Positions 5,424-5,860 of a stretch of DNA of 39,472 nt are shown in pieces. The notes below the pieces were generated by a model that did not search any database, had not been told where the DNA came from, and saw only the letters and a program-made list of their open reading frames with translations. The stretch is from a virus. Its lineage: Duplodnaviria; Heunggongvirae; Uroviricota; Caudoviricetes. The stretch lies in IMG/VR virus record IMGVR_UViG_2695420732_000023; one strand, written 5' to 3'. Made by a program: the position numbers and the translations under genes. Positions within the stretch are counted from its first letter, which is position 1. Every line of letters starts with the position of its first letter.

Positions 5424-5471
5424 TTTGCTGCTCCTCATCATATCGACCCTGCAAGGCCGATTAGTTTCTCC

Positions 5472-5860
5472 ACAAAACAGAGAAGAACACCTGCGGCGGC
5501 AGCCGCCCGGATGGATTGGGTTATGAGCCCGTCGTCCGGTGATGCTCTTCTCTGTTTTGTAAAAAGGACGGTACCAGCCGGAAGCAAGGGTACAAACTGG
5601 TACCGCCAGGACTACACACAGCATAAAGTTGTGGTGCCGGGTGCCTCCCGGTGCCTGGCGAAGGTTGCACACCAGACGGGTGGGTATCCACAGAAGGTCG
5701 ACTGTCAGCCTCAACCTTAACCCGCGTGCGCTGAGCCGCATTCACCACAACGCTAAGGATTCTCTCTGGTTGAAAATACTTAGCTGTTATGTGCCTGTCT
5801 TTTCACCACTTCAGGCTCGGTGGTATCCTTTTAAGCCCGTATACATAAAAGGAAAATCAA
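5472..5860. other. highly structured GC-rich non-coding region (multiple perfect hairpins); candidate ncRNA or regulatory leader
   Basis: 15-bp perfect inverted repeat 5472-5486/5546-5560, nested GGCGGC-A-GCCGCC, 9-bp stem 5569-5577/5597-5605, CCGGG-TGCCT-CCCGG at 5637-5651; no convincing ORF. Confidence 0.3.

Follow-up and report, generated by a model that had tools for sequence, protein, structure and literature searches.

What is encoded in the 436-bp gap (5425-5860) that separates yfdP from the ymfI-like open reading frame (ORF) ORF81 in the Caudoviricetes record IMGVR_UViG_2695420732_000023 of IMG/VR? The record is a stretch of 39,472 nucleotides, referred to here as a whole as the window, and a first-pass annotation made from its letters alone had described the gap as a GC-rich non-coding region packed with perfect hairpins upstream of the early-left genes, for which it proposed a structured RNA or cis-acting element such as a small RNA (sRNA), an antitermination (nut- or put-like) element or a processing site for the leftward early transcript. 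Our analysis makes it probable that the gap encodes a leftward structured sRNA of about 190 nt of the STnc100/PasD/sRNA-17 family, composed of a pseudoknotted domain, a linker and a terminator. The first of the three proposals is thus the one that is borne out, by a match to the STnc100 family, by helices that covary among 44 homologues and by sRNA-17, an RNA mapped by rapid amplification of cDNA ends (RACE) and Northern blot at the homologous locus.

The leftward structured RNA

Folding was among the checks that the first-pass annotation had suggested. The minus-strand RNA of 5425-5860 has a folding energy of -179.3 kcal/mol, against -143.1 +/- 6.3 kcal/mol for dinucleotide shuffles (z = -5.7), and none of the 100 shuffled sequences is as stable. 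Because the plus-strand RNA of the same interval stands out less from its shuffles (z = -3.7), the structure of the gap is biased toward the leftward transcript. The following parts, all on the minus strand, make up the sRNA and its immediate upstream flank:

5752-5784, minus strand: 5' stem-loop directly upstream of the core (GCUAAGUAUUUUC...GAGAAUCCUUAGC), from an inverted repeat and the minimum-free-energy fold
About 5751 to 5561, minus strand: sRNA unit of about 190 nt, with a 124-nt pseudoknotted core, a 20-nt linker and an intrinsic terminator
5628-5751, minus strand: core domain of the STnc100/PasD/sRNA-17 family, from the Rfam match, covariation and fold
5751-5743 with 5636-5628, minus strand: P1, the closing helix
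5739-5724, minus strand: AAU junction, then the P2 hairpin with a UNNGC loop
5718-5712 (AAGGUUG, right after P2) with 5667-5661 (CAACCUU, in the P4 loop), minus strand: predicted pseudoknot
5677-5653, minus strand: P4 hairpin
5651-5637, minus strand: P5 hairpin, CCGGG-AGGCA-CCCGG
5608-5627, minus strand: linker UUUAUGCUGUGUGUAGUCCU, predicted to be single-stranded, between core and terminator
5560-5607, minus strand: intrinsic (Rho-independent) terminator, a 13-bp stem that includes a 9-bp GGTACC-centred repeat, then UUUUU (5564-5560), from an inverted repeat and the fold

Using a permissive scan of Rfam, we obtained one meaningful match, to STnc100 (RF02076), at 5781-5559 on the minus strand; it scores 41.2 bits over the full length of the model (alignment 1-206), with E = 4.3e-7 in a search of 1.7 kb and E = 1e-5 when the whole window is searched, and its alignment ends in the 9-bp stem and U-run of the terminator. 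The minimum-free-energy fold reproduces P1, P2 and P5, the last of these corresponding to the repeat CCGGG-TGCCT-CCCGG that had been noted at 5637-5651.

We then considered the helices across the family, by reducing 146 core sites to 56 representatives less than 93% identical to each other and from these to a 44-sequence alignment that includes canonical copies. In this alignment P1 and P2 covary: 92.6% of the cells are paired and the covariation score is 0.265, compared with 0.099 after shuffling, values that none of 500 shuffles reaches. The P1 pair 14-151, for example, is G-C 23 times and A-U 16 times. The P2 of the window (GCGGC...GC-A-CGC) is fully compensated with respect to the canonical CCCCC...GG-N-GGG, C-G being replaced by G-C at three pairs, and it is because of this variant P2 that the window obtains a lower Rfam score. 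The conservation of P5 is not to be judged from this set, since its members were selected on the invariant P5 20-mer.

The segment that follows P2 is complementary to the loop of P4, and 56 of 57 family representatives keep this complementarity, in many different sequences (AUCAGCG/UGCUGGU, GUGAUACC/GGUAUCAC and AGACUGACAAA/UUUGUCAGUCU, for example), with a mean duplex score of 17.3 within the same sequence and of 13.1 across sequences. On these comparisons of sequence, we take the complementarity to be that of a pseudoknot.

The ends of the RNA, at about 5751 (the first base of P1) and about 5561, are placed by analogy with homologues; the start predicted from the family coincides with the RACE-determined 5' end of sRNA-17. 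A -10-like hexamer, GAGAAT (5764-5759), lies in the 3' arm of the 5' stem-loop, 7 nt ahead of the proposed 5' end, and -10-like hexamers are found at an equal distance in mEp460, 118970_sal3 (hereafter sal3), SJ46 and phiES15. The promoter to which GAGAAT would belong is weak and putative.

The linker is unpaired in both the minimum-free-energy and the centroid structures, and its motif (A)UUGCUGUGUG(U/A)AGUC is kept in ST64B, sal3 and phiES15 despite their different terminators. It is the likeliest candidate for a base-pairing seed. The terminator contains the 9-bp stem reported at 5569-5577 and 5597-5605, which we found again, and is 94-96% identical to the terminator that closes the RACE-mapped sRNA-17; by this analogy, the segment 5607-5560 would both close the sRNA at its 3' end and act as a barrier to transcription running leftward. 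Positions 5400-5608 of the window are 96.7% identical to mEp460, and a mosaic junction lies near 5608. The mEp460, cdtI and Stx2c phages share this interval, with the start of yfdP, the long hairpin described below and the terminator, at 95-97%, and carry a different RNA body upstream, which indicates that the sRNA core and the terminator recombine as separate modules.

To the left of the terminator, the 15-bp perfect inverted repeat 5472-5486/5546-5560 was recovered and grows to arms of 25 nt that are 84% complementary; the GGCGGC-A-GCCGCC hairpin nested in it was found at about 5495-5507, and a repeat-family search returned the repeated GGTGCCT motifs as well. The first-pass annotation was right about a structured RNA, whereas its single element divides into at least three, namely the sRNA core, the terminator and the hairpin of the yfdP leader. 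The conserved interior of this long hairpin reads GACGGGCUCAUAACCCAAUCCAYCCGG, and the hairpin is kept in mEp460, ST64B and phiNP with compensatory changes (G-C to A-U, A-U to C-G) and some mismatches. As it is missing from phiES15, a phage without yfdP, it travels with the yfdP module. Its long and nearly perfect stem (5560-5472) suggests a candidate RNase III processing or stability element, or else a second barrier; of the parts of the gap, it is only for this separate hairpin that the proposed role as a processing site is possible. The remaining parts of the gap are as follows:

5472-5560, minus strand: long hairpin of 89 nt in the yfdP leader, with a stem of about 20-25 bp that encloses the GGCGGC/GCCGCC mini-hairpin, from an inverted repeat and the fold
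5424-5471, minus strand: proximal 5' untranslated region of yfdP, with a small hairpin and a GAGGAG Shine-Dalgarno sequence (ORF list; annotation of an identical E. coli locus by PGAP, the pipeline that NCBI uses for genomes)
5785-5860, strand unassigned: spacer from the sRNA unit to ORF81, with a plus-strand hairpin at 5805-5824

The spacer 5785-5860 yielded no conserved element, and blast identity to many phages stops near 5825-5830. In SfV, a weak AT-rich 'terminator' has been annotated whose place here is about 5841-5873, so that it overlaps the right end of the spacer.

Distribution of the core and gene order

Homologues of STnc100 with scores of 34-42 bits occupy the corresponding position in several phages, and the core was found in them by blast and cmscan: the Salmonella phages ST64B and 118970_sal3, the Cronobacter phage phiES15, where it lies between the repressor and kil, and the P1-like phages SJ46 and JL22, where it is directly upstream of tciA. 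At least 120 IMG/VR contigs, as well as genomes from across Enterobacterales, contain the invariant P5 20-mer, ACCGGGAGGCACCCGGCACC. A covariance model of our own (R1), built from the 44-sequence alignment, gives 77.5 bits for the window, itself a member of the training set, 59.6 bits for the e14 prophage of E. coli K-12 and 21.9 bits (E = 0.0012) for sRNA-17 in mEp460, all at the expected positions.

Of the 146 sites, about 100 are found downstream of a Q or DUF968 gene, with holin or lysozyme genes following them; about 20 have the placement seen in the window, between cI and yfdP or kil, and two precede tciA; all classified copies are co-oriented with the operon that flanks them. A consensus sigma-70 promoter (typically TTGACx-17/18-TAAATT) ends 4 nt before P1 in 25% of the unique copies, against a background of 1.7%, and an intrinsic terminator lies within 200 nt downstream at 100 of 113 unique sites, at a median distance of about 48 nt. 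From this enrichment on both sides, the family unit can be read as promoter, structured RNA and terminator. A second STnc100-like copy near Q was sought in the window with the Rfam model and with our own covariance model, and none was found.

Several genomes carry the RNA in unusual arrangements. Salmonella phage Fels-1 has three co-oriented copies in series (3098-3232, 3493-3609 and 4635-4777) between Q and the holin gene, and several IMG/VR contigs have two or three tandem copies about 250-670 nt apart. In SJ46 and JL22 (2998-3132), which are P1-like plasmid-prophages, the core is not followed by a terminator, and about 30 nt separate its end from the tciA start codon; a hairpin formed by AACCUUAU and AUGAGGUU can sequester the tciA Shine-Dalgarno sequence, a cis-leader arrangement unlike the form with sRNA and terminator.

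The window corresponds to an SfV-like lambdoid prophage, with 99.6% identity to Shigella phage SfV over 5400-5900 (blast), and its sequence is related to a region present in 2864 of 5426 complete E. coli genomes. The genes around the gap are these:

3507-4070, minus strand: yfdR
4171-4995, minus strand: yfdQ
5061-5423, minus strand: yfdP, with its ATG at 5423-5421
5861-6106, plus strand: ymfI-like ORF81, whose 3' end overlaps the 3' end of the following ORF
6024-6341, minus strand: ymfJ/orf33-like ORF
6578-6561: cI terminator, from a terminator scan
6598-7290, minus strand: cI-type repressor
7388-7648, plus strand: cro; a cII/YmfL-type gene also belongs to the local gene order

The placement of the gap upstream of the early-left genes was correct, as yfdP-yfdQ-yfdR...xis-int lie to its left and the cI-like repressor to its right. 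The convergent, 3'-overlapping ORFs 5861-6106 (plus) and 6024-6341 (minus) are counterparts of e14 ymfI and ymfJ; annotators disagree on the two ORFs of the window, and neither has a Pfam match. Elsewhere in the window, a tRNA gene (1369-1441, plus strand, 71.8 bits) at the left end adjoins the integrase and excisionase genes and is presumably the prophage attachment site. A 279-aa ORF (13573-14412, minus strand) that carries a TIR_2 domain (PF13676, E = 4e-7) interrupts, in the opposite orientation, the stretch from the Q gene (PF06530, 13153-13533) to the late-region terminator and holin; it is likely a defence 'moron' (an inserted accessory gene). In ST64B (5731-5919) and sal3 (6189-6377), isrK and C4 antisense RNA exceed their gathering thresholds on the right-hand side of the immunity region; an Rfam scan of the window gave no match to either.

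Proposed mechanism and competing readings

The transcript that would cross the gap in the early phase would start further right, where two features outside the gap concern us:

6493-6544, minus strand: putative leftward promoter (PL), TTGCAT (6521-6516), 17 nt, TATCTT (6498-6493), read from the sequence
6344-6411, minus strand: PL-leader RNA of about 65 nt, which reads AACGAACAGGCAGGACGCCCACGAAGUAGCCGCCUGGGGCAUAUGAAGUCCAGGAUGAUUCGUU, downstream of the putative PL

The putative PL is flanked by the operator-like repeats TTTGCATACCCCGCAAA and CTTGCATATCTCGCAAT, the cI terminator lies just upstream, and its geometry is kept in ST64B, mEp460 and phiNP. The PL-leader RNA comprises a closing stem, an invariant AGGCAGGACGCCCACGAAGUAGCC, a covarying hairpin and GGAUGA, and an exact 18-mer of it occurs in at least 120 viral contigs. 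Its two helices covary, with 10 of the 11 modelled pairs compensated and 94% of the cells paired, a result matched by none of 500 shuffles. In about 80% of the more than 90 contexts considered, a strong promoter ends a median of 16 nt upstream of it. Both RNAs are present in 46 loci, and in every one of these the PL-leader shares the strand of the STnc100-like core and precedes it, 438-1125 nt upstream. Rfam gave no match to the PL-leader, and no sequence match was met in the literature searched, which did not cover the put-like sequences of King et al. 2011, among which it may be included.

By analogy, the PL-leader RNA may be an N-independent, put-like antiterminator. Homology with put itself was considered and is not supported: CGAAC.GGC and CAGGAUGA are common to both, but the motif search was at chance level, our covariance model of the PL-leader (R2) does not detect HK022 putL or putR, and minimum-free-energy folds were uninformative for this comparison. 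In six IMG/VR relatives, the PL-leader is followed by a hairpin and then by GCTCTTTAACA, which matches the rrn-type boxA consensus; the window has no GCTCTTTAACA 3' of its PL-leader. The presence of this boxA-like sequence in some relatives hints that the leader region may be devoted to antitermination.

From these elements, the following course of events can be proposed. In the lysogen, a discrete RNA would be made from the weak promoter with its -10-like GAGAAT and would stop at 5560-5564, and the terminator, possibly aided by the long hairpin, would block leftward transcription into yfdP-yfdQ-yfdR...xis-int; both the expression in the lysogen and the barrier effect are proposed from the behaviour of homologues. 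The released RNA would probably act in trans via Hfq, perhaps CsrA, and base-pair most likely through the linker, in analogy with PasD. After induction, PL transcripts would have to read through the terminator 5607-5560, and it is the PL-leader RNA 6411-6344 that we infer to supply the terminator resistance. The trans-acting targets, the promoter and the mechanism of read-through are the parts of this scheme to be taken as conjecture.

Several observations weigh against an sRNA of this kind. The STnc100 match that came out of the suggested scan of RNA families stays, at 41.2 bits, under the gathering score of 47 and is absent from a scan at gathering thresholds. Evidence for expression as a discrete RNA comes from homologues (STnc100_4 in enterohaemorrhagic E. 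coli (EHEC) and sRNA-17, by Northern blots), and sRNA-17, the only early-left homologue to have been mapped experimentally, has a different interior, so that its properties, including regulation by ArcA, may not transfer. A consensus scan found no sigma-70 promoter belonging to the window sRNA, and no good -35 accompanies GAGAAT; the RNA could therefore be processed from PL transcripts instead. A search inside the window found no target for the linker seed. A plain Hfq-dependent base-pairing sRNA would not usually combine a pseudoknot with so extreme a conservation of P5 and the P2 loop, a combination that hints at another partner, and the P1-like copies, in which a core without terminator abuts the tciA ribosome-binding site, look like cis-acting leaders.

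In other readings, the RNA acts in cis. The element could be purely an insulator or attenuator, the RNA and its terminator serving only to silence yfdP-int in the lysogen and the released RNA being a by-product. Deletion of the homologous sRNA-17 de-represses yfdP about 95-fold, with downstream genes responding most, all family copies that could be classified share the orientation of an operon that lies downstream of them, and the P1-like copies without terminator abut the tciA ribosome-binding site. We nevertheless hold this reading to be unlikely, as a bare terminator would suffice for it and the 124-nt pseudoknotted domain conserved across Enterobacterales would be left unexplained; moreover, accumulation, binding to Hfq and CsrA and chimeras with many mRNAs are documented for PasD and STnc100, and the linker is conserved independently of the terminator. 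A riboswitch-like leader, in which the core would sense a ligand, a protein or RNA polymerase and decide whether the terminator (or, in the P1-like phages, the Shine-Dalgarno-sequestering hairpin) forms, is suggested by the aptamer-like architecture, with a multi-helix domain closed by P1, a pseudoknot, invariant loops and a terminator 15-30 nt further on, and by the capacity of the sequence that follows P1 in SJ46 and JL22 to pair with the tciA Shine-Dalgarno region. It is very unlikely for the window: there is no conserved antiterminator, the complementarity of core and linker to the 5' arm of the terminator being 10.1 within and 10.4 across sequences for 68 family members; the terminator does not overlap P1 and starts about 20 nt after it; the terminated RNA accumulates and deletion of the locus de-represses the downstream genes in the homologous sRNA-17 system; and terminators and cores recombine independently, as the junction near 5608 illustrates. 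A cis-regulatory role is kept open by the P1-like arrangement of a core followed by a sequestering hairpin.

The second proposal of the first-pass annotation, which would give the leftward early transcript a nut- or put-like site for processive antitermination, fares worse. Although the gap lies in the PL operon ahead of the delayed-early genes, and an RNA-based system is plausible for a window in which no N homologue is evident (no N-like Pfam domain was found among the ORFs scanned), a search that allowed up to two mismatches found no boxA (CGCTCTTA- or GCTCTTTAACA-like) in 5424-5860, there is no resemblance to HK022 putL or putR, and the element lies about 730 nt from PL instead of adjacent to it. 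It also has its own terminator and behaves as a barrier in the homologous system, most members of the family are downstream of Q in late operons, and 6411-6344 offers a better candidate; we therefore regard this reading as highly improbable. It is hardly credible, finally, that the gap holds a decayed protein-coding gene, as in the PGAP call of a frameshifted 'hypothetical protein' or YmfH pseudogene at 5438-5748. PGAP does mark a frameshifted coding sequence in identical E. coli loci, and the 75-aa ORF has 18 database relatives, including YmfH of K-12; however, these are the only matches among 5.8 billion proteins, all in tiny 'hypothetical' clusters without a relevant Pfam domain. The ORF itself has no Pfam match, nor have the other ORFs across the gap, in agreement with the first-pass remark that they are not protein-like, and it begins exactly at the GUG GUG AAU of P1 and runs through the terminator. 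Conservation tracks the RNA helices with compensatory changes, indels in homologues are not multiples of three and the interiors differ, and the K-12 ymfH locus itself matches the RNA model. We accordingly reject a degraded coding sequence and consider the PGAP call to be a spurious YmfH-type ORF laid over the RNA.

In the e14 prophage of K-12 MG1655, the YmfH ORF (b1142) overlaps a homologue of the family RNA (5255-5388, minus strand; E = 9e-15) with a degenerate P5. The K-12 ymfH is probably a mis-annotated sRNA locus. A ymfH clone has been reported as a trigger of the retron-Sen2 toxin RcaT (bioRxiv 10.1101/2020.06.22.160242), and this triggering could be an RNA effect. We recommend that the gap, the e14 'ymfH' and the PGAP 'frameshifted hypothetical protein' be recorded not as protein-coding but as an sRNA gene with its terminator.

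To return to the sRNA reading, a broader form of it, which we advance as a speculation with rather poor prospects, would make the core more than the scaffold of a base-pairing sRNA, namely a functional module that works with a conserved macromolecule, for instance CsrA, a host defence sensor, RNA polymerase or the transcription machinery. It would be set by temperate Enterobacterales phages at the starts of operons (late after Q, early-left, P1 tciA) and paired with the PL-leader RNA in phages of the SfV/ST64B/e14 type. If this were true, core and PL-leader would form an N-independent RNA switch, set to a terminated sRNA in the lysogen and, once induction has occurred, to read-through as far as xis and int.

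Comparison with known systems

STnc100 is a gammaproteobacterial prophage sRNA first found in Salmonella and present in 11 copies in EHEC EDL933; copies are expressed in EHEC lysogens and one, STnc100_4, has been confirmed by Northern blot (PMC5331693). The window shares with it P1 (GGUG...CACC), the GGUGAAU junction, a P2 with a UNNGC loop, an identical P5 (CACCGGGAGGCACCCGGCACC) and a 3' terminator, and it is likewise prophage-borne and co-oriented with the downstream operon. It differs in the P2 stem, GCGGC/GCNCGC instead of CCCCC/GGNGG (fully compensated), in an internal topology with an extra GGG...CCC helix, in its early-left position from cI to yfdP, whereas the majority of copies occupy the interval from Q (or stx) to the lysis genes (PMC12370729), and in not having the consensus lambda-PR'-like promoter present in 25% of the copies.

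The closest system by position is sRNA-17 of E. coli K1 RS218, which is encoded in an mEp460-like prophage and measures 193 nt by 5'/3' RACE and Northern blot (PMC7719688). Its published sequence starts with GTTGTGGTGAATGCG and ends in a GGTACC-centred terminator directly upstream of yfdP; when it is deleted, yfdP rises by log2 6.6 (the 95-fold effect cited above) and yfdR rises too, the downstream genes being the strongest responders; and its authors found no Rfam relative and report regulation by ArcA (PMC7719688). We made the comparison on the mEp460 sequence and the published alignment. In mEp460, sRNA-17 occupies the locus that matches the window element, and the 5' sequence GTTGTGGTGAATGCG is common to both; also alike are the placement between the repressor/PL region and yfdP, the first 15 nt (GUUGUGGUGAAUGCG), the 3' strand of P1, the start of yfdP, the terminator and downstream hairpin (about 95% identical) and the length (193 nt against about 190 nt). 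By contrast, the interior of about 110 nt is unrelated in sequence, in line with the low R1 score, and identity does not extend over the full 193 nt of sRNA-17, mEp460 matching only positions 193-246 of the core query. The linker of sRNA-17, AGCCACUGCUUU, differs from that of the window, so that any targets should differ too. The window version would fall among the shorter matches that the authors of sRNA-17 called 'degenerative sRNA-17' (PMC7719688).

For PasD1 and PasD2 of enteropathogenic E. coli E2348/69, Zhu, Shabalina and Storz report a consensus structure and an ancestry common with STnc100. PasD is encoded by lambdoid prophages, is stabilised by Hfq and has targets detected by RIL-seq (the sequencing of ligated pairs of interacting RNAs; Pearl Mizrahi et al., PMC8550237); it is abundant on CsrA, within the most abundant CsrA-bound RNA pair, and forms chimeras with many mRNAs. 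The genes for PasD lie near Q and lpxR, in the late region, and its seeds reportedly differ from those of STnc100; its relation to the window is drawn from the published description.

Most relatives of the core resemble lambda 6S and StxS, which are short PR'-tR' transcripts of lambdoid late operons: they start within a few nucleotides of a TTGACx-N17/18-TAAATT promoter, which lies upstream of them, after Q and before the holin gene, and they run to a terminator, in the position that the 6S transcript has in lambda. This promoter resembles the lambda PR' consensus. The window copy, unlike these, is away from the late promoter, and the likeness concerns the position of the relatives and not a comparison of sequence or structure. 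The put RNAs of HK022, two-stem structures of about 70 nt, have in common with the window element that they are structured, that they precede terminators and that their early operon belongs to a lambdoid phage which apparently has no N; however, put adjoins its promoter and suppresses termination, whereas the window element terminates, far downstream of PL. Reading putL and putR from the HK022 genome, we found no sequence or structural match to the window element, only a vague resemblance of motifs.

The window RNA is thus an early-left member of a known and widely spread prophage sRNA family, and no new class of element is revealed. The comparison does define the barrier that would keep the yfdP-xis-int operon silent in lysogens of the SfV/ST64B/mEp460 type, and it indicates the probable place of the read-through signal. 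To what was known of the family it adds the predicted pseudoknot and the compensated P2, an associated PL-leader RNA and a link between sRNA-17, ymfH and STnc100, so that three RNAs which had been named separately, STnc100, PasD and sRNA-17, are joined by a common pseudoknotted core.

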